Shown: positions 2,312 through 39,725 of the stretch, in pieces
Position numbering within the stretch: the first letter of the stretch is position 1
How the letters are laid out: every line of letters begins with the position of its first letter
Source: an uncultured Candidatus Saccharibacteria bacterium
GTDB taxonomy: Bacteria; Patescibacteriota; Minisyncoccia; Minisyncoccales; JANBVM01
Direction of reading: 5' to 3'
DNA length: 40,956 bases
Assembly: GCA_964566875.1 (NCBI GenBank)
Contig: CAZMJM010000002.1
Coordinates: forward strand, 5,324-46,279
Made by a program: the position numbers and the translations under genes
Notes under the pieces: generated by a model
The model's input: the letters and a program-made list of their open reading frames with translations, nothing else
What the model was told of the DNA's origin: nothing
Database searches by the model: none

Positions 2312-2926
2312 TTATTTTTTGAAGACGATGAATTTATATCCCAGGAAGTTCCAGGCAAATCCTGCTATGGCTGCCGCTATTCCTCCTACGCTGGCCCAGA
2401 TTTTGGGGGTCAATCCGAACTGAGGGCCTAAAGCGTTGACTACCAGGGAGGCTACTCCTACGTTTATTCCCAGACCGATAAAGGTAACGATAAAAAACTG
2501 GGCGAATTCCTTTTGTACGCCGCTCATTTCCTTCTGTTCGAAAGCCAGGAATTTATTGGCCCAGTACTTGGCAAAGGTTGCCACCAAAAAGGATATGCCC
2601 TTGGAAACGCTGAATATAAGCCCCTCCGCTTTCTGGAAGATAGTTATTAATAAATTGAGGACTCCCAAATCCAGAAGCGTAGCCAGAGCTCCTATCAGCA
2701 GGAATTTAGCCAACTGGAAGACGAAAGGAAATCTCTTTCCTATTAATTCGGCTATCCAGAGGCCGAGAACAGCCAAGACCGGCAGAGCTAAAAATAAAAT
2801 CCAGGTTAAGATCCCTATGCCAGTACCCATTACCTGATTGACGCCGGCGCTTTTGATGAGGCCTATCATAAACCAGGCCAGGACCAGTCCCGTTATGATG
2901 GCCAAAATGGTGTCTGTTTTTTTCAT
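2312..2926 (-). CDS. GtrA-family membrane protein with extra N-terminal TM helices
   Basis: Polytopic hydrophobic profile. GtrA-like motifs FAKYWANKF and WNFLGYKFIVFKK. Confidence 0.7.
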   Translation of the reverse strand: MKKTDTILAIITGLVLAWFMIGLIKSAGVNQVMGTGIGILTWILFLALPVLAVLGLWIAELIGKRFPFVFQLAKFLLIGALATLLDLGVLNLLITIFQKAEGLIFSVSKGISFLVATFAKYWANKFLAFEQKEMSGVQKEFAQFFIVTFIGLGINVGVASLVVNALGPQFGLTPKIWASVGGIAAAIAGFAWNFLGYKFIVFKK

Positions 2927-2963
2927 ATTGAATCATTTTAACACGGACAATTAAGAAATCAAC

Positions 2964-2992
2964 TTGACGGAGAGAGTCGTCTGTTGTAATTT
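2964..2992 (+). promoter_or_regulatory. Candidate sigma70-type promoter for the cysK leader
   Basis: TTGACG (2964-2969), 17-nt spacer, TAATTT (2987-2992). Confidence 0.4.
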
Positions 2993-3005
2993 GGAAAGCA
3001 GATTT

Positions 3006-3095
3006 ATGAAAAACCTAAACGCCTTTCCATTAATGGTTTGCTGCTGTTGTCAGTGTAACTGTCTCGTAAACAGGGAGGGGGTTTGGTTTAATTAA
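3006..3095 (+). CDS. Cys-rich leader peptide MKNLNAFPLMVCCCCQCNCLVNREGVWFN (29 aa, below the ORF-track cutoff)
   Basis: ATG 3006, TAA 3093-3095. Six Cys codons within eight consecutive codons (3039-3062). Lies in the leader of cysteine synthase. Confidence 0.6.
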   Translation: MKNLNAFPLMVCCCCQCNCLVNREGVWFN

Positions 3096-3158
3096 ATAAG
3101 AAAGTCGAAATAACCTTGAACTCGATACCGCCCCTTCCCAAGAAGGGTTTTTTATTTT
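3073..3158 (+). promoter_or_regulatory. Candidate attenuator: antiterminator GGGAGGGGG (3073-3081) competing with the terminator left arm
   Basis: 3073-3081 can pair over 9 bp (one G-U) with CCCCTTCCC (3131-3139). That segment overlaps the terminator stem arm 3132-3137. Confidence 0.5.
3132..3158 (+). terminator. Intrinsic terminator abutting the cysK start codon
   Basis: Stem cccttc/gaaggg, loop ccaa, then TTTTTTATTTTT running into the ATG at 3160. Confidence 0.6.
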
Positions 3159-3159
3159 T

Positions 3160-3996
3160 ATGAATATTCTTAAAACCATAGGTAATACCCCCTTAATAGA
3201 GGTGCAGGGCGTATTCGCAAAGCTGGAAACGGTTAATCCCTCGGGCTCCATCAAGGACCGGATGGCCAAATTCATGGTGGAAAGGGCTGAAAAAACAGGG
3301 AAATTAAAGCCCGGTTACCGCATAATCGAGGCCACCTCCGGTAACACGGGAGTGAGCTTTTCTCTCGTTTCGGCAGTTAAGGGATATAAGTTTACGGCCG
3401 TAGTACACGAGAGCACCAGTTCCGGGAAAAAAGATTTGATGAGGCTTTTGGGGGCTGAATTGGTGTTGGTACCTGATGAATGGGGCTTTCCAGAGCTTAT
3501 CGCCAAAACCGAAGAGTTGGCAAGGGAACGCCGTCGTAAGGTATGGCTGCCCAAACAGTTCGCCAACCCAGATAACGTAGAAGCGCACAGGCTAGGCATG
3601 GGACGGGAGATAGCGCGCCAAACTAAGAAGATAGATGCTCTCGTGGCCGGTATCGGTACGGGAGGGACACTGATGGGGGCTGCCAAGGCGCTGCGGGCCA
3701 AATTCCCGAAGATAAAGATTTTCGGCGTGGAACCTGCCGAATCCCACCACCAGATAGAAGGAATTTCCGACGGCATTGTGCCCGATATTCTGGAGGAAAG
3801 ATTGATTGATGGGATGATTAAGGTTAAGAGCCGCGATGCATTGAGAACCGCAAGGAAACTGGCTGAAGAGCATGGTCTGCTGGTAGGTATTTCATCTGGG
3901 GCCAACTTCATGGCTGCCCGGCAGCTTAAAAGAAAGTACCAGAATGTGGTTACGGTTTTCCCGGATAGGGCCGAACGCTATCTGGAAAAGCTATAG
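3160..3996 (+). CDS. cysK: Cysteine synthase family PLP enzyme (O-acetylserine or O-phosphoserine sulfhydrylase, short 278-aa form)
   Basis: IGNTPLIEV, PLP-lysine motif NPSGSIKDR, TSGNTG, GIGTGGT glycine loop. Confidence 0.85.
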   Translation: MNILKTIGNTPLIEVQGVFAKLETVNPSGSIKDRMAKFMVERAEKTGKLKPGYRIIEATSGNTGVSFSLVSAVKGYKFTAVVHESTSSGKKDLMRLLGAELVLVPDEWGFPELIAKTEELARERRRKVWLPKQFANPDNVEAHRLGMGREIARQTKKIDALVAGIGTGGTLMGAAKALRAKFPKIKIFGVEPAESHHQIEGISDGIVPDILEERLIDGMIKVKSRDALRTARKLAEEHGLLVGISSGANFMAARQLKRKYQNVVTVFPDRAERYLEKL

Positions 3997-4003
3997 TTTT
4001 TTT

Positions 4004-4030
4004 AAAAAAAGAGAGCAGATTAACTGCTCT
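4004..4030 (-). terminator. Intrinsic terminator of the TFB-like gene (overlaps its stop codon)
   Basis: Stem agagcag (4012-4018) / ctgctct (4024-4030), 5-nt loop. On the minus strand it is followed by T7 (complement of A7 at 4004-4010). Confidence 0.6.
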
Positions 4031-4958
4031 TCATAGTAATTATTATCTCAGGGAAAAACTTGCATATTTCCTTGTGCCTGTTCCTTAAGGTCACTTCAGT
4101 GACGTGTACAATTTCTGCAACCTCTTTCTGCGTCTTGGAAATGCCTTCACTTTCTTTGCAGATGCCGTATATCAGGCCCGCCAATACTCCGCTTGGGTCT
4201 TTTCCTACAAACTTACCGCTCTGCATTATTTCTTTAAAGGCAGGGAAAATTTTTTTCTTGATATTCATGGGTAATTCGAGTGCGGTTGCATAGCGATATA
4301 CAAAATCTTTCATATTTTCTCTGTCCTCCGCGTTAAAGAATGATTTTATCTCATCAGAAAGTACCAACTTTTGATAATCTTGGAAAATCCTTTTTTGCGT
4401 AAAACCGACAAGTTCTGACAATTCTTTAATCGGATTTTTGCCTAAATTGTTCCTGTATACAAGACAAAAGACAGCAGTAGCTAAGCATTTCCAATCTTTC
4501 CAATGGATGTTGGTGTCGACAGCTTTTTTCATTGCTTTCTTCATCTCTTTTTTGATAGCCTGGGATAGCGTAAAATGAGGATAAGCTCTCCTGATTATTT
4601 CATTTATGCAAATCGCTGCCGTCATATTGTGCTTTTCTTCCGGTGGCCTGAACCATTTTTCCGTTCTCCTTAAATTCCTTGCTTTTAAAGCGGCGGCGGG
4701 GTCTAGTTTTCTGCCAGAATCGTCCCTGTTGTTCATCCTTATTCTGGTCCCTTTACCGCCGGAATATTTCTCAACCGGAACCCTGGGATATGTGGGGTTG
4801 TCTTCGGGATAAAAGTTAACGCCTCCCTCGTGGTCAAAGCAGCGTTCTTCCAGAACGAGGCCGCAGTCCAGGCAGACAATTTCTCCGTTCTTCTCATCAT
4901 AGGTTGTATTCTTATGGGCGCATTCTGGATATTGATAATTATGATTATTAATTATCAT
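4020..4958 (-). CDS. TFIIB/TFB-like transcription factor homologue (zinc ribbon plus two cyclin-fold repeats)
   Basis: N-terminal ribbon PECAH...YDEKNGEIVCLDCGLVLEE. C-terminal GKDPSGVLAGLIYGICK...TQKEVAEIVHVTEVTLRNRHKEI closely resembles archaeal TFB (GKSPAGL...TQREVAEVARVTEVTVRNRYKEL). The first ATG at 4958 is preceded by SD AGAGGTG (complement of 4965-4971) at 6-nt spacing. The ORF-track start 4967 is GTG. Confidence 0.85.
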   Translation of the reverse strand: MIINNHNYQYPECAHKNTTYDEKNGEIVCLDCGLVLEERCFDHEGGVNFYPEDNPTYPRVPVEKYSGGKGTRIRMNNRDDSGRKLDPAAALKARNLRRTEKWFRPPEEKHNMTAAICINEIIRRAYPHFTLSQAIKKEMKKAMKKAVDTNIHWKDWKCLATAVFCLVYRNNLGKNPIKELSELVGFTQKRIFQDYQKLVLSDEIKSFFNAEDRENMKDFVYRYATALELPMNIKKKIFPAFKEIMQSGKFVGKDPSGVLAGLIYGICKESEGISKTQKEVAEIVHVTEVTLRNRHKEICKFFPEIIITMKSS

Positions 4959-5018
4959 ATCATTCACCTCTTTTTAAACGAGCTTTTTATATTCAAAATC
5001 TTAACAGAATTTCACCCT

Positions 5019-5054: not shown

Positions 5055-6467
5055 ATGAATAAATCCATGCTCAAACTGTACAACACCTTAGCCAGGAAAA
5101 AACAGGTTTTCAGGCCCATTAAACCTAAGAAGGTCAACATTTTTGTTTGCGGACCGACCGTCTATGATTTTTCTCATATTGGGCATGCAAGGACCTACAT
5201 TTCTTTTGACGTAATCGCCAAATACCTGAGGGAAAAGGGGTACGAAGTCTTTTATTTGCAGAACATTACCGACATTGACGACAAGATTATAAAAAGAGCG
5301 CGGGAAAAAAAGGTTTCCTGGAAGAGTTTGGCCAGGAAATTTGAGGAAGAATATCTCAAGGATATGAAAGTTCTTGGGGTAGACAGCGTTACCAGGTATG
5401 CCAGGGCCACCGATCACATCAAGGAAATCATTTCTCAGGTGGGGAGATTGGAGAAAAGAGGTTTTGGTTATAAGACCACCAACGGTATTTATTACGACAT
5501 AGCCCGTTTCAAAGAATATGGAAAACTCTCAGGGAGAACGGCGGTAATGGCAGAGGATTCCCTCTCGAGGATAGACGAGGGAGGGGAAAAAAGAAATGCC
5601 GGCGATTTTTGCCTGTGGAAATTCTCAAAGAAAAACGAGCCAAAGTGGAAGAGCCCCTGGGGAATGGGAAGGCCGGGTTGGCACATTGAGGATACGGCCA
5701 TTACCGAAAAGTATTTCGGGGCCCAGTATGATGTTCACGGCGGTGCCCGAGACCTGATTTTCCCGCACCATGAAGCGGAAATCAGCCAGATGGAGGCCGT
5801 TTCCGGGAAATCTCCATTGGTAAGGTACTGGCTTCACACCGGATTCCTGGTCATCGAAGGCCAGAAGATGTCAAAGTCTTTGGGTAATTTCATTACCATA
5901 AGGAAGCTCTTGAAGAGGGTATCTCCCAGAACCCTGAGGCTTTTGGTGGTAAAGACTCATTACCGCTCCCCTATTGATTTCAGCGAGAGATTACTCCTGC
6001 AGAGCAGAAAAGAAATTGAGAGGATGGATGAATTCCTGGGGAAAATAAAAAAGCTTGCTCAAGAAAAATCGGGGAAAAAGGTGAGAATGAAATTGATTAA
6101 AGATGCAGAGAAAGAATTTGACCGGGCCATGGAAGACGACCTCAATACTCCTTTGGCCGTCGCGGCAATTTTTAAAGTGATATCCGAAGGAAATAAGCTT
6201 CTGGATAAGGGCGGTCTGAATTCAATAGAATCTAAAAGGATTCTGGCCTTTTTTGAAAAAGTAGATAGAATCTTCAGCCTTGATTTGGCGAAGGTAAAAA
6301 AAATAAAAATCCCTCAAAAGATAAGGAATTTAATGTACCAGAGAGAAAGGTTAAGGCAGGATTCTCTATGGGATAAAGCTGACGACATCAGAAAAGAGAT
6401 TGAAAGAGCAGGCTACCAGATTGAGGATACGTCAGAGGGCCCCAAAATCGTTAAGCGGACGAAATAA
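5055..6467 (+). CDS. cysS: Cysteine--tRNA ligase
   Basis: HIGHAR and KMSKS motifs. MLKLYNTLARKKQVF matches the canonical CysRS N-terminus, so the second ATG at 5067 is an alternative start. Confidence 0.95.
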   Translation: MNKSMLKLYNTLARKKQVFRPIKPKKVNIFVCGPTVYDFSHIGHARTYISFDVIAKYLREKGYEVFYLQNITDIDDKIIKRAREKKVSWKSLARKFEEEYLKDMKVLGVDSVTRYARATDHIKEIISQVGRLEKRGFGYKTTNGIYYDIARFKEYGKLSGRTAVMAEDSLSRIDEGGEKRNAGDFCLWKFSKKNEPKWKSPWGMGRPGWHIEDTAITEKYFGAQYDVHGGARDLIFPHHEAEISQMEAVSGKSPLVRYWLHTGFLVIEGQKMSKSLGNFITIRKLLKRVSPRTLRLLVVKTHYRSPIDFSERLLLQSRKEIERMDEFLGKIKKLAQEKSGKKVRMKLIKDAEKEFDRAMEDDLNTPLAVAAIFKVISEGNKLLDKGGLNSIESKRILAFFEKVDRIFSLDLAKVKKIKIPQKIRNLMYQRERLRQDSLWDKADDIRKEIERAGYQIEDTSEGPKIVKRTK

Positions 6468-28360: not shown

Positions 28361-28969
28361 TTACCACGTGATAAGGAATTCGTGATGTCCATCGCCTTTA
28401 TGGCTGCATTTGACTTCCTTACAATCCAGATTGTCTTTTTTCAGCACCATTTTGGCTATGGAGGCAAAGTAGCCTTCCATACACCTGCAGAAAATCGGAT
28501 GGAGATTAAATTCTTTTATTTTCATAATGATGTATCTTTTTTCTTCGTTATATTCTGCAAATTCCAGCTCTCCCTCAGTCCAATAGGTTCTCCACATCTG
28601 CTGGGCCTTTTTCATGACTTCGGGCAGAGAATATATGTATTTTGAGAAAAGCCTGACAATTAAAGATATTCTGGGGTGAAAATAGCATACGTTCCTGATT
28701 TCCTCATCACCAGAATTAAGAACCTTTTTAATGGCCAACAGAGATACCGCTCTCATACCGCCGGGAATGAATTCCATCTCCTTTATCTCCCGGTATTTTA
28801 TGGGATACCCCAGCCTTTCCCATTCCTTTTCTACTTTTTCCAGGACTTGTTTTCCCTTAGTCTTTATAATATATTCCCCGTCGTGCTTGACATTAAAACC
28901 CCTTGTTTCAAAGGAGGTGTTTTCAATCAGGCTTTTAGCTTTTGCGGGGTCGATTGTTGCTTCTGTCAT
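28361..28969 (-). CDS. H-NOX/V4R-fold (DUF2378-like) paralogue P1
   Basis: Shares the family pattern ETRG...LGYPIKY.EIKEM.F.P...HP..C...GYFAS...CKEVKC..KGD..HEF.ITW with P2-P5. Confidence 0.6.
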   Translation of the reverse strand: MTEATIDPAKAKSLIENTSFETRGFNVKHDGEYIIKTKGKQVLEKVEKEWERLGYPIKYREIKEMEFIPGGMRAVSLLAIKKVLNSGDEEIRNVCYFHPRISLIVRLFSKYIYSLPEVMKKAQQMWRTYWTEGELEFAEYNEEKRYIIMKIKEFNLHPIFCRCMEGYFASIAKMVLKKDNLDCKEVKCSHKGDGHHEFLITW

Positions 28970-28976
28970 AATTTAT

Positions 28977-29591
28977 TTACCAGTTTAATACAAATTCGTG
29001 ATATTCGTCTCCTCGAAAGACGCATTTTTCTTCCCGGCAGGTCACGGGTTTTCCAGTAATCATCTGGACTACGCTGGCGAAATATCCTATCAAATTCTGA
29101 CACTGCAGGGGATGAAGCTTGAAATTTTTGAGGCGGACAACAGCTTCTCTGTTTTCCTGGTCGAATTTCACAACCTCCAGGTCTCCGACGGTATAACTCT
29201 CCCTCCATATCTTAGGAGCTTCTCTGGCTACTATTTCCGGTGAGAAGAAGTACTTCATAAACATTCTTATCAGGAAGGATACCTTGGGTTCGAACCTTCC
29301 CATTTCCTGGAATTTTTTCGTGTCATAGTGGAAAAGTTTCTCAGCGCCGCACAGCACCAGGGCTTCCAGCCATACGGGATAAAAATCCATCGTCTTTATC
29401 TCTTTTAGTTTTATCGGGTAGCCCATATCGTTTATTTTTTTCTCCAGCTTCTCGACCCCCTCATCTCCCTCTTGTTCAAGAATAAAGTCAACCTCCCCTT
29501 TAATGGCGATCCCTCTGGCTTCCCCGGATATACTCCTCAATCCTTCAAATTCTTCTTTGGAGAATATTGGCTCTTCCATGTTATTATCCAT
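28977..29591 (-). CDS. H-NOX/V4R-fold (DUF2378-like) paralogue P2
   Basis: GEARGIAIKG, MGYPIKLKEIKTMDFYP, FMKYF, HPLQC..LIGYFASV, CREEKCVFRGDEYHEFVLNW. Confidence 0.6.
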   Translation of the reverse strand: MDNNMEEPIFSKEEFEGLRSISGEARGIAIKGEVDFILEQEGDEGVEKLEKKINDMGYPIKLKEIKTMDFYPVWLEALVLCGAEKLFHYDTKKFQEMGRFEPKVSFLIRMFMKYFFSPEIVAREAPKIWRESYTVGDLEVVKFDQENREAVVRLKNFKLHPLQCQNLIGYFASVVQMITGKPVTCREEKCVFRGDEYHEFVLNW

Positions 29592-29596
29592 TATTT

Positions 29597-30205
29597 TTAC
29601 TTTCCCCAGCTTACCAGAAATTCATGATATTCGTCTCCGCGGGACATGCATTTTCTTTCTTCGGATTTGACTTCTTTATTGACAACCATCTTAACGATGC
29701 TTATGAGATAGCCTTCAACGGTGAGACAATGGATGGGATGGAGCTCGAAGTCGTTTATCCGGACAACGATGTACCCTTTTTCTTTGTTGATTTCCGTAAC
29801 CCTCAGATTTCCTTTGGTATAATACTTTCCCCAGAACTTTGGCGCCTCTCTGGCGATGGTTTCCATGGAAACGAAATATTTCATAAACAGCCGCACTATC
29901 AGCGAAACCTTGGAATTAAACTCTCCCATCTTGATAAAATCTTCCTGCGAAAAATGGAATAATTCCTCCATCAGGAGAAAGGCGATGGCTTCCAGGCCCA
30001 CCGGATAAAAATCCATTTCCTTGATTTCCTCGTACCTGATGGGAAACCCCAATTCTGCGGCTCTTTCTTCTAATTTCGCCAGGGCCTCCTTCCCTTCTCT
30101 GTAAAGAATGTATTCCAGATCGCCCTTGATGGAAATTCCCCTTGTTTCTCCAGGAACTTTCATCAGCTCCCCGGCTTTTTCTTTTGTAAGTTTTTCAGGT
30201 TCCAT
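29597..30205 (-). CDS. H-NOX/V4R-fold (DUF2378-like) paralogue P3
   Basis: GETRGISIKG, LGFPIRYEEIKEMDFYP, FMKYF, HPIHC..VEGYL, ERKCMSRGDEYHEFLVSW. Confidence 0.6.
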   Translation of the reverse strand: MEPEKLTKEKAGELMKVPGETRGISIKGDLEYILYREGKEALAKLEERAAELGFPIRYEEIKEMDFYPVGLEAIAFLLMEELFHFSQEDFIKMGEFNSKVSLIVRLFMKYFVSMETIAREAPKFWGKYYTKGNLRVTEINKEKGYIVVRINDFELHPIHCLTVEGYLISIVKMVVNKEVKSEERKCMSRGDEYHEFLVSWGK

Positions 30206-31106: not shown

Positions 31107-32120
31107 CTATGATTTCCCCTCTTTTTCATCGGCCGCCAGCTGCCCGCAGGCGGCGGCTATGTCTTGCCCGAACCGGAACCTTTCCGTCACCGCTATCCCT
31201 TTGCGCTGAAGCGTTTCTTTGAATTTCCTGACCTTCGCCGCTGGAGAAGGCGCAATGCCCCGGACCGCCGGGTTATAAGAGATAAGATTAACGAAATAAA
31301 GCGGTTTTTTCATCAATGAAGCCAATTGCACAGCACATTTTTCAGAGTCGTTGAAATCCTTTATCATTATGTATTCAAACATAACCCTCCTATTTGTTGT
31401 TTCAGCGTAAGATTCGACCGCCTCCAGTATCCGGGAAATGGAGTACTTTGCATTGACGGGCATCAGGCGGCTTCTCAATTCGTCCGTTGGGGCATGGAGC
31501 GAAATGGCCAGATTAACCTCCAGTGGTTCTGCGGCCAGCTTCCTGATGCCATCCGTGATACCGACGGTTGATATGGAAAACCTCCGTGCTCCCATATTGA
31601 ATACTTCCGGCTCATGCATCGTTTTCACCGACTCCATGACGTTTTCGTAATTGAGGAATGGCTCCCCCATCCCCATGAAAACTACGTTGGTTACCTGCTT
31701 TTTCGATTTTTTTAAATACCGAGAGAAAAGCAGCACCTGCTCTACTATTTCATGAGACTTAAGGTTCCTCTCAAATTTCATCTTTCCCGTAGCACAGAAA
31801 AGACACCCCAGCGGACATCCGACCTGCGAGGATACACAAACCGTATTTCGCCCGTCCTTATGCCTCATCAAGACAGATTCTATCTTCAGGCCGTCCTCCA
31901 ATGTGATAAGCGCCTTGGCCGCCTCGGTCTTCTTGGACCGGAAAAGGCGGTGCTCGATGTTAAGCGGACATGCTTCATTCAGCCTTTCCCGCAAAGAAAA
32001 AGGGAGGGTGGTAGCCCCCTTCCAGTCGTCTATCAGGTCATGGAATATCGCTTTTTTTACCTGATGGGCGCGGTATTCAGGCTCTTTCTCCAATATTTTT
32101 TCAAGATTAGCCAGGTTCAC
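31107..32120 (-). CDS. rlmN: 23S rRNA/tRNA (adenine-C2)-methyltransferase RlmN (radical SAM)
   Basis: SSQVGCPLGCLFCATG radical-SAM motif, MGMGEP, C-terminal catalytic Cys (AAACGQL). Confidence 0.9.
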   Translation of the reverse strand: MNLANLEKILEKEPEYRAHQVKKAIFHDLIDDWKGATTLPFSLRERLNEACPLNIEHRLFRSKKTEAAKALITLEDGLKIESVLMRHKDGRNTVCVSSQVGCPLGCLFCATGKMKFERNLKSHEIVEQVLLFSRYLKKSKKQVTNVVFMGMGEPFLNYENVMESVKTMHEPEVFNMGARRFSISTVGITDGIRKLAAEPLEVNLAISLHAPTDELRSRLMPVNAKYSISRILEAVESYAETTNRRVMFEYIMIKDFNDSEKCAVQLASLMKKPLYFVNLISYNPAVRGIAPSPAAKVRKFKETLQRKGIAVTERFRFGQDIAAACGQLAADEKEGKS

Positions 32121-33190: not shown

Positions 33191-33799
33191 TTACCAGCTT
33201 ATTACAAATTCGTGGTGGCTGTCTCCCCTGTGAATGCATTTTTCTTCCCGGCATGAGGCTTCACTGCCCACCACCATCCTTACCACGCTGGCAAAGTAAC
33301 CTTCCAGGCTGATACAGTGGTCGGGATGGGCTACAAAATCTTCCAGCACCATGATTCCCCGCCTGGTCTCATTATTGATTTCCCTGACCTCAAGGTTGCC
33401 TACGGTATAATTTTTCTTCCACATTTTGGAAACCTGTTTGGCGGCCACTTCAATGGAAATAAAATACTGCATGAATACGCGTACCAGAAGAGAAGTCTTC
33501 GACTCGAATGCCCCCATCTCCCTTATCTTCTCGTCATCAAAATCAAATATCTTTCGGGCAGCAACAATGGTGGCGGTTTCCATACCTAAGGGGTAAAAAT
33601 CCATTTCCCTGATGCCCCTGTAGTCTATAGGGTGGCCCGCTTTCTTCATTGCCTCCTCCAATTCACTCAATCCCGCCTCGTTCTTTTCCTTAAGAACGAA
33701 TCTGCCGTGGCTTTTAATGGCAACTCCCCTGCTCTCTCCGGAAATTTTCATTATCTCTCCGATTTCTTTTGCCAGCTCGTTGAATTTGCTTTGTTCCAT
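33191..33799 (-). CDS. H-NOX/V4R-fold (DUF2378-like) paralogue P4
   Basis: GESRGVAIKS, AGHPIDYRGIREMDFYP, FMQYF, HPDHC..LEGYFASV, CREEKCIHRGDSHHEFVISW. Confidence 0.6.
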   Translation of the reverse strand: MEQSKFNELAKEIGEIMKISGESRGVAIKSHGRFVLKEKNEAGLSELEEAMKKAGHPIDYRGIREMDFYPLGMETATIVAARKIFDFDDEKIREMGAFESKTSLLVRVFMQYFISIEVAAKQVSKMWKKNYTVGNLEVREINNETRRGIMVLEDFVAHPDHCISLEGYFASVVRMVVGSEASCREEKCIHRGDSHHEFVISW

Positions 33800-38468: not shown

Positions 38469-39725
38469 TTATTGGAATAACTGTTCAAGGCAGTCCGACT
38501 CAGAAAACAGGCCCAGGAATTCCCCCACCCGGCACAATTCTTCTTTTCCTTCAACCCCCTTATCAACGGTATCGTCGCAGAGGGTTTTCCATTCCTCATC
38601 CTCTATCTGTTTGCAGACGGAGGGGTCTCCTTCCTCTGAAGCCACAATAAGATAACATCCTTCCCTTCCCTCTTCAATATAACTGCATATGTCTGGGTCT
38701 CCCTCCAGACCGGCGAAGAGGAGATAACACCCTATGGCAGATTTTTTGGTGGGCGCCTGTTGGCAGAGCGTCGGGTTTCCGTTTAGCTGGGCAAAAGAAC
38801 CATAACAGGCAGCCAGCATAATGGTGGAGGCTCCCTCCGAAGGGATGAGAGAGAATTGGCTGCACAGCTCAGAACTACCGACTGCCGCAGCCACTCCTCC
38901 GTAACAGCTGCTTATACCGGCAATGTCTCCTGAAGCCTGGCACAAATCCACATTGGCGAAACTTCTGCCCATTTCCTTATAACATTTTACCAGGCTGAAA
39001 ACGTCGGAATGTTCAATAAATTGGCAGGCCGTCAAATGGGATTGTTCATCGGCGGTAAACCGAGACTGGGCGGTTTCCTGAGACTCTTCCGTAGAAGAGG
39101 CCTCTGTGCTTCCGGGAGATTCTCCTTCAATAATTTCCTCCTGTAACTGCGGCTCCGCAACCCGAGAGCTCAATCTCAGTTGTTGCTCTTTTATGTTATC
39201 CTGTTGGTTTTCCGATATTAATGGCATCAGTTCAGCCACCTTTTGGGCTGAAGTATCTATCGTTTCCTGTACGATTTCTTCATTTTTTCCCTGGTCCTGT
39301 CCTCCTCCCCGCCAATTGTCCAGAATAAAGTTTTCGTAGTCTAAAATCCTTTCCGCAACGGATTCTGCCCTTAAATTCCTATCTTCTTCGTAAGGCAGCA
39401 TTTCTACCTGCCTGATGCAGATGGAGGTATAACTCTGATAATTTTTAAAAGCTTTCTCCGCCATTTTCGTTTTCCCTTCGGCTATCATCTTATCCATTTC
39501 GGCCAATTTCTCCTCGGCATATTGCATGCTCTTCTCAATCTTCTTCTCACGCTTGAAGGCGAAGAAAAGAACTATTTTTTCCCCCAACACATCCAGAGGG
39601 TAATATATGCTGTCCGGAGTAATGCCCGGGGCCGGCAATTCGAAAGCAGCCCCTGCTGCAAACGAAATACTTAAAAGAAAAACGACGCAAAGTAAAATTT
39701 TAATTTCTGGATTCCTTTTATTCAT
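38469..39725 (-). CDS. Secreted protein: DUF5667-like N-terminal domain plus C-terminal Cys-pair repeats
   Basis: Signal peptide. PGITPDSIYYPLDVLGEKI is DUF5667-like. Five to six repeats of CY-x7-9-(G)(D/N)P-x2-C in the C-terminal half. Confidence 0.7.
   Translation of the reverse strand: MNKRNPEIKILLCVVFLLSISFAAGAAFELPAPGITPDSIYYPLDVLGEKIVLFFAFKREKKIEKSMQYAEEKLAEMDKMIAEGKTKMAEKAFKNYQSYTSICIRQVEMLPYEEDRNLRAESVAERILDYENFILDNWRGGGQDQGKNEEIVQETIDTSAQKVAELMPLISENQQDNIKEQQLRLSSRVAEPQLQEEIIEGESPGSTEASSTEESQETAQSRFTADEQSHLTACQFIEHSDVFSLVKCYKEMGRSFANVDLCQASGDIAGISSCYGGVAAAVGSSELCSQFSLIPSEGASTIMLAACYGSFAQLNGNPTLCQQAPTKKSAIGCYLLFAGLEGDPDICSYIEEGREGCYLIVASEEGDPSVCKQIEDEEWKTLCDDTVDKGVEGKEELCRVGEFLGLFSESDCLEQLFQ

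Follow-up and report, generated by a model that had tools for sequence, protein, structure and literature searches.

Attenuation by leader peptides is textbook knowledge for the biosynthetic genes of tryptophan, histidine, leucine, threonine, phenylalanine, and isoleucine/valine. The leaders trpL, hisL, leuL, thrL, pheL, and ilvL of Enterobacteria and those of trp and ilvB in Actinobacteria have in common a promoter-proximal mini open reading frame (mini-ORF) with codons for the pathway's own amino acid, RNA regions that pair alternatively as 1:2, 2:3, or 3:4 with the position of the ribosome selecting the fold, and an intrinsic terminator right before the first structural gene. The same arrangement is predicted for the leader described here, which precedes a gene of the cysteine synthase family (cysK) on a stretch of 40,956 nucleotides (nt) from an uncultured Candidatus Saccharibacteria bacterium (contig CAZMJM010000002.1); this whole stretch is called the window in the following. 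The leader is most probably a trp-type, ribosome-mediated transcription attenuator that senses Cys-tRNA(Cys) and controls the cysK-family gene. Such doubt as remains would concern its read-out, which may be termination, translation initiation, or both. Unlike the classical attenuators, it would respond to cysteine, and its mini-ORF is near-leaderless and devoid of a Shine-Dalgarno (SD) sequence; in most relatives region 1 is, in addition, bipartite, with a segment 1b that can also pair with region 4. It has neither sequence homology to the classical leaders nor an Rfam match.

For cysteine, too, there are precedents. An earlier reading of this DNA, made from the letters alone (the sequence-only reading), had been aware of no well-characterised Cys leader-peptide attenuator; in view of published cases in Actinobacteria, including mycobacteria, and upstream of cysS in Rhodobacterales, its claim of novelty was too high. 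Leader peptides rich in Cys were predicted in Actinobacteria (Seliverstov et al. 2005, PMC1262725), and the polycysteine leaderless short ORFs (sORFs) of Mycobacterium smegmatis are cysteine-responsive attenuators, which unmask a downstream ribosome-binding site (Ms5788A, 'Cys ribulon'; Canestrari et al. 2020, bioRxiv 10.1101/834739; Mol Microbiol 114:93). The window leader shares with these elements the run of Cys codons at the 5' end of the mRNA, with at least two of them consecutive, the (near-)leaderless start, the location before a gene of cysteine metabolism and, as proposed here, the relief of repression by ribosomes stalling on Cys codons. It differs in that the mycobacterial elements act by SD unmasking and have no intrinsic terminator, whereas the window leader possesses a conserved hairpin with a U-run and no SD, so that an SD-sequestering duplex without terminator is not what is found here. 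The two stem from different phyla and show no homology.

The third precedent is the uORFC-8-2 motif (Brewer et al. 2021, PMC8632094), a presumed attenuator of Rhodobacterales that combines two Cys codons with a terminator and lies upstream of cysS. Common to both are predicted ribosome-mediated attenuation, Cys codons in an upstream ORF (uORF), a terminator stem with U-run, and the link to cysteine and the charging of tRNA(Cys); in most relatives of the window, cysS is the gene right after cysK. By its published description, however, the motif is set apart from the window leader: its two tandem Cys codons occupy positions 14-15 within the first stem, and it is found before cysS only and in Alphaproteobacteria only, while the family described here has four to seven Cys codons, precedes cysK in Patescibacteria-type genomes, and is different in sequence and structure. 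In the reading proposed here, the window leader shares the principle of all three precedents and is a member of neither Cys family. The Cys T-box and S-adenosylmethionine (SAM)/S-box riboswitches of Firmicutes share conditional intrinsic termination in the 5' leaders of cysteine genes, but they sense uncharged tRNA or SAM through large conserved folds and do not require translation. The attenuator proposed here is mechanistically orthodox and has Cys-specific precedents; the family of Cys leaders in Patescibacteria-type genomes appears to be undescribed, since literature searches returned no account of Cys leader attenuators of this type in Patescibacteria.

Layout and predicted folds of the leader

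The leader occupies a gap of 233 nt between a GtrA-like ORF (2312-2926, minus strand) and the cysK-family ORF (3160-3996); the latter and all leader elements lie on the plus strand. As the GtrA-like gene is divergent, the leader hairpin does not serve as a terminator for another gene. The cysK-family ORF encodes a protein of 278 amino acids with a Pfam PALP match of 2.8e-67, while its NCBIfam cysKM score of 305 bits is under the cut-off of 344 bits. A sigma70-type promoter is predicted from a -35 hexamer TTGACG (2964..2969) and a -10 hexamer TAATTT (2987..2992), located 13 nt 5' of the leader ATG and found at the same position in related leaders; it would leave a 5' untranslated region of about 5-7 nt in the window and of 0-10 nt across the loci compared below. 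A promoter downstream of the hairpin, which the sequence-only reading had named as a finding that would contradict it, was not what emerged, the conserved promoter being situated upstream of the mini-ORF.

The mini-ORF (3006..3095, ATG at 3006, TAA at 3093-3095) comprises 29 codons plus stop and encodes the peptide MKNLNAFPLMVCCCCQCNCLVNREGVWFN. Its regulatory Cys run at 3039..3062 reads TGC TGC TGT TGT CAG TGT AAC TGT, that is, six Cys codons of eight with TGC and TGT mixed. This run is far beyond chance. Cys accounts for 0.92% of the 7846 codons in the long ORFs of the window, from which an 8-codon window has a probability of 1.6e-11 of containing at least six. When the 41-kb stretch was randomised 200 times by a first-order Markov model and read in six frames, runs of at least four Cys codons occurred at 0.025 per 41 kb and clusters of at least five Cys in eight codons at 0.015; the real window holds one of each, and both are the leader ORF.

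Downstream of the mini-ORF, the arms CCCTTC (3132-3137) and GAAGGG (3142-3147) form the hairpin CCCUUC-CCAA-GAAGGG (3132..3147, region 3:4, -7.7 kcal/mol), which was returned by terminator scan and folding alike. The U-run TTTTTTATTTTT that follows it (3148..3159) touches the cysK ATG. Within the last codons of the mini-ORF, GGGAGGGGG (3073-3081) is complementary to CCCCTTCCC (3131-3139) over 9 bp including one G-U. All of these elements, from the 29-codon ORF and its six Cys codons to the GC stem with its U-run and the 9-bp pairing, had been placed by the sequence-only reading where re-reading finds them, and the pairing is also part of the minimum free energy (MFE) fold of 2993-3175, in which 3073-3082 is paired with 3130-3139. 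Its parts list was correct for antiterminator and terminator and had overlooked the anti-antiterminator, namely the helix of region 1 (3011..3028) with region 2 (3073..3089).

When the RNA reaching up to the U-run is folded without constraint, region 1 pairs with region 2 and the terminator 3132-3147 is formed. The Cys codons are enclosed by the 1:2 helix; folding of the 5' part by itself gives -23.3 kcal/mol. With a ribosome placed on the last Cys codon, region 1 is disabled and region 2 switches to region 3 (3127..3139), the 3' strand of the antiterminator, which overlaps the left arm of the terminator: 3073-3082 pairs with 3130-3139 and 3085-3087 with 3127-3129, altogether 13 bp with -23.7 kcal/mol. 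Antiterminator and terminator are mutually exclusive, and at -23.7 versus -7.7 kcal/mol the former, once free, is by far the stronger; an uncompetitive antiterminator had been named in the sequence-only reading as a refuting result. Once the ribosome is placed at the stop codon, it masks region 2, and the terminator is back in the fold.

The same behaviour was obtained by footprint folding of 11 leaders (the set defined below), in which every A-site position was taken in turn and all RNA up to the leading edge of the ribosome was masked. In all 11, the U-run was left without an adjoining helix only when the A site occupied one of the final one to three Cys codons or, in the window leader, any Cys codon, and the compact terminator was restored once the A site had passed the last Cys codons. 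The switch was stable for leading-edge offsets from +10 to +16 nt. In each of the 11 leaders, region 2 starts 13-14 nt past the first base of the Cys codon that closes the run, which in the model coincides exactly with the edge of a ribosome stalled at that codon.

The scenario suggested by these folds is as follows. Transcription would start from the sigma70-type promoter a few nt 5' of the leader ATG. On a ribosome-free leader, region 1 would pair with region 2, the terminator would form, and RNA polymerase would stop before cysK; given the -23.3 kcal/mol of the 1:2 pairing, untranslated RNA should, therefore, also terminate. With ample Cys-tRNA, a ribosome on the mini-ORF would translate all six Cys codons, reach the stop at 3093, and mask region 2, and again the terminator would form. 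When Cys-tRNA is scarce, the ribosome would stall within 3039-3062, so that region 1 would be covered or unpaired and region 2 free; the 13-bp 2:3 helix would then block the terminator, and RNA polymerase would read into cysK. Termination at the U-run and its response to cysteine would be the outcome of this interplay. The stall and read-through logic, as already proposed in the sequence-only reading, is supported by footprint folding as well as by the conservation and co-variation described in the following.

Relatives of the leader and co-variation of its regions

DNA flanking cysK was drawn from a species-level genome collection and from assemblies encoding selected CysK homologues. The closest CysK relatives belong to metagenome-assembled genomes of Patescibacteria/Candidate Phyla Radiation (CPR) bacteria, among them a 'Candidatus Saccharibacteria' (80% identity to the CysK of the window), Parcubacteria GBS-2 (64%), and a 'Patescibacteria group bacterium'. 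Eleven loci were compared, comprising the window and L001, L112, L095, L097, L100, L104, L106, L102, L005, and L114, with CysK identities to the window's of 53-100% (relatives 53-80%). The window carries dnaX, dnaB, recR, rmuC, and cysS and is, hence, bacterial; in most of the eleven loci a Patescibacteria-type synteny dnaX-GtrA-[leader]-cysK-cysS-GT4-dnaB is seen.

A common architecture is found in all eleven loci. It begins with a promoter of TTGAC(A/G), 16-17 nt, and TAAnnT, the -10 variants in relatives being TAAGAT, TAATCT, TAAACT, TAAAAT, or TACGAT, and continues with a leader ATG 6-18 nt 3' of the -10 element and a mini-ORF of 17-30 codons that contains a tight cluster of four to seven Cys codons. 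Next comes region 2, which is rich in purines (e.g., GAGG or GGGAGGGG), and then, beyond an AT-rich spacer whose length varies, a complementary region 3. The leader stop codon is located before region 2 in some loci (L095, L102, and L005) and after it in others. Leader peptides of the relatives include MKNRNTFPLTICCCCCQRNCFLSRKGFWFN, MESQKSLKFNCCNCNCCASLKEVDF, MKSKNLRNNCCACCTCCCTSF, MKKKTNLIICCNCCNCCTSLKEVVSFINS, and MKKFLSLNYCECCCASF. In most relatives region 1 consists of two parts, a segment 1a from the 5' portion of the ORF, whose partner is the distal half of region 2, and a segment 1b (CCUCUUU) right after the Cys run, which pairs with proximal region 2 and can also pair with region 4; the Cys codons sit in the loop between the paired segments. 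The window and L001 rely on the upstream part of region 1 only.

The covariance model R1, built from the eleven leaders, recovers all of them and one further leader, L006 (1009-1145), whose cysK is 43% identical. It encodes the leader peptide MTKLKITVAVSIRVCCCPLFLSGGPFG, has the pairing CGGAGGGC/GCCCUCCG, and ends in a GC-rich terminator, GCCCUCCG-GAAA-CGGAGGGU plus U6. Since its contig is binned as 'Gammaproteobacteria', either the element would reach beyond the close clade or the contig would be mis-binned. Thus, counterparts of the leader ORF are known from the ten relatives and L006, and in all 12 loci a hairpin with a run of 5-8 U, a predicted intrinsic terminator, is present at the same place between leader ORF and structural gene. 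Conservation of the mini-ORF and its Cys run had been set beforehand as the test of the attenuator; both are kept in 12 of 13 distinct related loci, with L108/L109 as the exception.

More distant cysK loci came from a metagenome scan with the patterns EATSGNTG and TVxPDRxER. These were too generic, the matches listed being all at most 49% identical, and served as a negative control: among the matches listed, R1 found nothing upstream of 80 more distant cysK loci, and in the full 88 (at most 49% identity) it matched in L006 only. Again among the matches listed, some short ORF in which two Cys codons stand close together precedes cysK in about 12 of the 88 loci; the attenuator architecture was seen in none of these.

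Regions 2 and 3 co-evolve across the loci. Aligning the leaders with MAFFT (A2, A3) gave a poor result, as did the RNAalifold consensus, owing to shifting helix registers and to the variable spacer that separates regions 2 and 3. Realignment to R1 was a partial improvement; for this reason, reliance was placed on per-sequence constrained folds and on a comparison of cognate and non-cognate duplexes. In this register-free test, the duplex energy of region 2 of each locus was determined with its own region 3 and with that of every other locus. Cognate duplexes had a mean of -17.2 kcal/mol versus -13.5 kcal/mol for non-cognate ones, and none of 20000 permutations reached the cognate mean. In the model-fitted alignment, 78% of cells pair as opposed to 50-63% with slid partners; double-change cells number 15 versus 8.5 +/- 2.4 in shuffles (6 of 500 reach 15), and the covariation score is 0.301 versus 0.240 in shuffles (7 of 500). 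Matched changes in the distal helix are exemplified by UAGAUUU/AAAUCUA (L112), UAGGUU/AACCUG (L095), GGCUAG/CUAGCC (L005, L102), UUAGUUUU/AAAACUAU (L100), and GUUUGG../..ACCG.. (window).

Weighing the attenuator against other explanations

The preference for a transcription attenuator is based on the sequence elements and their conservation, on the co-variation of region 2 with region 3, and on the fold that is thermodynamically preferred in each state. Several observations weigh against it. The -10 hexamer TAATTT of the window agrees with the consensus at three of six positions, and because of this fit the promoter is not called in a consensus scan of the window. The mini-ORF lacks an SD, so that leaderless or SD-independent translation would have to be assumed. 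The terminator stem of the window is short (6 bp, -7.7 kcal/mol) and that of L114 very weak (-1.4), while L006 has a terminator and an antiterminator of equal stability, so that equilibrium folding never gives read-through there. In most relatives the free RNA does not adopt 1:2 plus 3:4; it folds into a long composite stem, in which 1b:4 closes 2:3 and which still abuts the U-run. If this composite stem terminates, only the last Cys codons would be sensing positions. On the model-fitted alignment the formal covariation signal is modest, a consequence of helix registers that change from locus to locus. Finally, L108/L109, a clade member with a cysK 60% identical and a different gene context, is without a Cys ORF.

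In L108 a tRNA gene is located upstream, and genes for Aminotran_5, DUF4395, and histidine kinase proteins follow. The leader of this locus (1180-1420, identical in L109) contains another hairpin with U-run, AUAUCUCUC-N-GAGAGAU...UUUUUUU, which possibly belongs to a different regulator.

With regard to initiation, SD motifs are nearly absent before the ORFs of the window, cysK included, and many of these ORFs have a TAnAAT-like hexamer 6-13 nt 5' of the start (e.g., 2926, 5055, 7696, 38469-39725). This suggests that leaderless or SD-independent initiation may be widespread in the lineage; as the genes of the window are mostly SD-less, a mini-ORF that is SD-less and near-leaderless is normal for this genome. 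Region 4 (GAAGGG/AGAGG) was considered as an SD of cysK that the terminator would sequester and was rejected in this role, SD motifs being essentially absent and the spacing amounting to 12-25 nt.

Among the other explanations, translational attenuation as in mycobacteria survives best and is nonetheless judged unlikely. The 3:4 hairpin would block access of ribosomes to the cysK start 12 nt downstream, a stalled ribosome would open the structure, and the U-run would be an unstructured landing pad. The experimentally proven Cys leader system acts on translation (bioRxiv 10.1101/834739), hairpin and ATG are separated by only 12-14 nt in the window, L001, L112, L102, L005, and L106, and both mechanisms could operate together. 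Yet neither cysK nor most other genes of the window offer an SD that could be sequestered, a hairpin with 5-8 U in every locus is the signature of an intrinsic terminator, and hairpin and U-run are kept in L097, L100, L104, and L095, where the cysK ATG is 20-35 nt away.

Very unlikely, and less probable than a translational read-out, is a riboswitch, T-box, or protein-dependent antiterminator that would use the same pair of hairpins while the Cys ORF remained untranslated. Alternative terminator and antiterminator structures are indeed common to all such mechanisms. However, no relevant Rfam match was obtained for the leader at the gathering threshold, and at E <= 10 only unrelated families appeared, with E >= 0.7, so that no T-box or SAM fold was detectable at either level; moreover, the spacer between regions 2 and 3 is AT-rich, unconserved, and of variable length, and conservation is seen in the start ATG, the frame, and the Cys codons, among which TGT and TGC swap synonymously in the runs of the relatives.

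Conservation of a Cys-rich ORF would also be expected of a functional micropeptide (metal-binding, redox-active, or the precursor of a ribosomally synthesized and post-translationally modified peptide) that is co-expressed with cysK and next to which the hairpins are incidental. This explanation has, in our estimation, slightly less in its favour again and is very improbable: beyond the Cys cluster, the peptides share only residues encoded by paired RNA (e.g., ...CC-TSL(K/R)E...), their length ranges from 17 to 30 amino acids with stop position and the number and spacing of Cys varying, and there is no modifying enzyme or transporter nearby in the window or in the loci of the relatives. The least credible reading, a chance ORF beside an insulator or constitutive terminator that separates divergent promoters, would accord with a single-sequence fold only marginally better than shuffles (z = -1.76), but is at odds with a Cys run that is expected at about 1e-11 per 8-codon window and 0.015-0.025 per 41 kb and is conserved in 12 loci, and with the fact that a constitutive terminator before the only gene downstream of a promoter would silence that gene. 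Because of this weak z-score, the case for the attenuator rests on conservation and comparison.

Neighbouring genes and archaeal cysK loci

In most relatives, cysS begins 10-20 nt after cysK on the same strand, and the leader may, therefore, also influence cysS; however, the 3' end of cysK in relatives carries a -10-like TAAAAT/TAGAAT directly ahead of the cysS ATG. The window and L112 have a minus-strand TFIIB-like gene between cysK and cysS, and in both, cysS (5055-6467 in the window) has a TTGTCA-N16/17-TAnAAT promoter of its own and no Cys uORF. A second Cys leader before cysS was, accordingly, sought and rejected for the window and L112.

The TFIIB-like protein of the window (4020-4967, minus strand, 315 amino acids) matches the Pfam TFIIB zinc ribbon and TFIIB cyclin repeat and scores 121 bits, below cut-off, with the NCBIfam model 'transcription initiation factor IIB'. 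Its syntenic copy in L112 (1722-2594, minus strand) is 26% identical; in the other relatives cysK and cysS are adjacent. A homologue of an archaeal-type transcription factor is unexpected on an otherwise bacterial CPR contig. Between the convergent cysK and TFIIB-like genes, a hairpin AGAGCAG-TTAAT-CTGCTCT (4012-4030) with A-run and T-run flanks looks like the terminator of the minus-strand TFIIB-like gene, there being no T-run after the stem on the plus strand. On the other side of the leader, a promoter-like site for the GtrA-like gene (TTGATT-16-TAAAAT with upstream TG, 2935-2962, minus strand) adjoins the leader promoter back to back. Its -10 element is only 8 nt before the ATG at 2926, implying a leaderless mRNA. 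Elsewhere in the window, four paralogues of about 202 amino acids (28361-30205 and 33191-33799, minus strand) are 34-40% identical, with conserved Cys/His and a weak match to the V4R domain; three of them are in tandem beside a radical-SAM gene (31107-32120).

Cysteine codons upstream of cysK are also encountered in archaea. Four DPANN loci (Woesearchaeota, Micrarchaeota, unclassified), L002, L003, L004, and L110, encode CysK proteins 53-58% identical to that of the window; archaeal neighbours in L110 are genes for geranylgeranyl reductase and DTD2. In all four, an upstream ORF encodes a peptide with ...(R/Q)-x-S-C-C at the C-terminus or close to it; the ORF is situated at 2800-2877 in L002, 2777-2848 in L004, 2817-2897 in L110, and about 20-75 in L003. 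The peptides are MIMRQPTTLIKQNKVLLARAVSCCC, MNTQVLLKFGLKNILLLKRISCC, MMTPTPIANGKNVSLLGRLSCCWLYC, and ...AVNCQVSCCIM, and before the stop codon they end in ...LLARAVSCCC, ...LLLKRISCC, ...LLGRLSCCWLYC, and ...NCQVSCCIM. In L002 and L110 the Cys uORF begins some 25 nt downstream of a TTTATAA box and, from this distance, is apparently leaderless at the 5' end of the transcript. Neither a hairpin/U-run attenuator nor, among the four sequences, a shared secondary structure was found in the DPANN loci.

L002, L004, and L110 contain, in addition, a second, SD-preceded, Lys-rich uORF with one Cys codon, which overlaps the cysK start in another frame (2958-3020, 2931-3011, and 2979-3020, respectively; peptides MKAKRMKMKGDYWCNRKINW, MKNKEKANKNKTRLNKGNSRCLREYF, and MRIKQTKGDYRCS). 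The cysK of L004 has no in-frame ATG, GTG, or TTG before the GNTP motif. These arrangements could reflect coupling or reinitiation, or else a start of non-canonical type or a shift of frame. Of the last kind, a programmed +1 event at the single Cys codon in the second uORF was rejected in view of poor P-site re-pairing (UGG or CGG to GGU).

It is conceivable, though at present doubtful, that the DPANN uORFs act as Cys-tRNA sensors, and with them the Cys-codon uORF would not be confined to bacteria. If this were true, there would be ribosome-mediated amino acid sensing in archaea, and a literature search for ribosome-mediated amino acid attenuation in archaea returned no report. A cysK shared by CPR bacteria and DPANN archaea would then have brought the sensing principle along or acquired it anew, with the read-out rebuilt for the different transcription machinery of the latter. 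If confirmed, the DPANN Cys uORF would be a more surprising result than the bacterial attenuator.

Summarizing, the window leader would add a cysteine-specific, terminator-based member to the leader-peptide attenuators, the only tested Cys example, that of mycobacteria, being translational. Its design is compact, with about 150 nt and apparently only RNA polymerase and ribosomes required. For the Patescibacteria/CPR, uncultured organisms with tiny genomes and little-known regulation, it represents a clear conserved cis-regulatory switch, from which these bacteria would retain sensing by coupled transcription and translation, sigma70-type promoters, and intrinsic terminators. The regulatory logic may, furthermore, be taken as functional evidence that a short CysK-family enzyme with a below-cut-off score supplies cysteine, and supposedly auxotrophic cells would tune this enzyme to the charging of Cys-tRNA.

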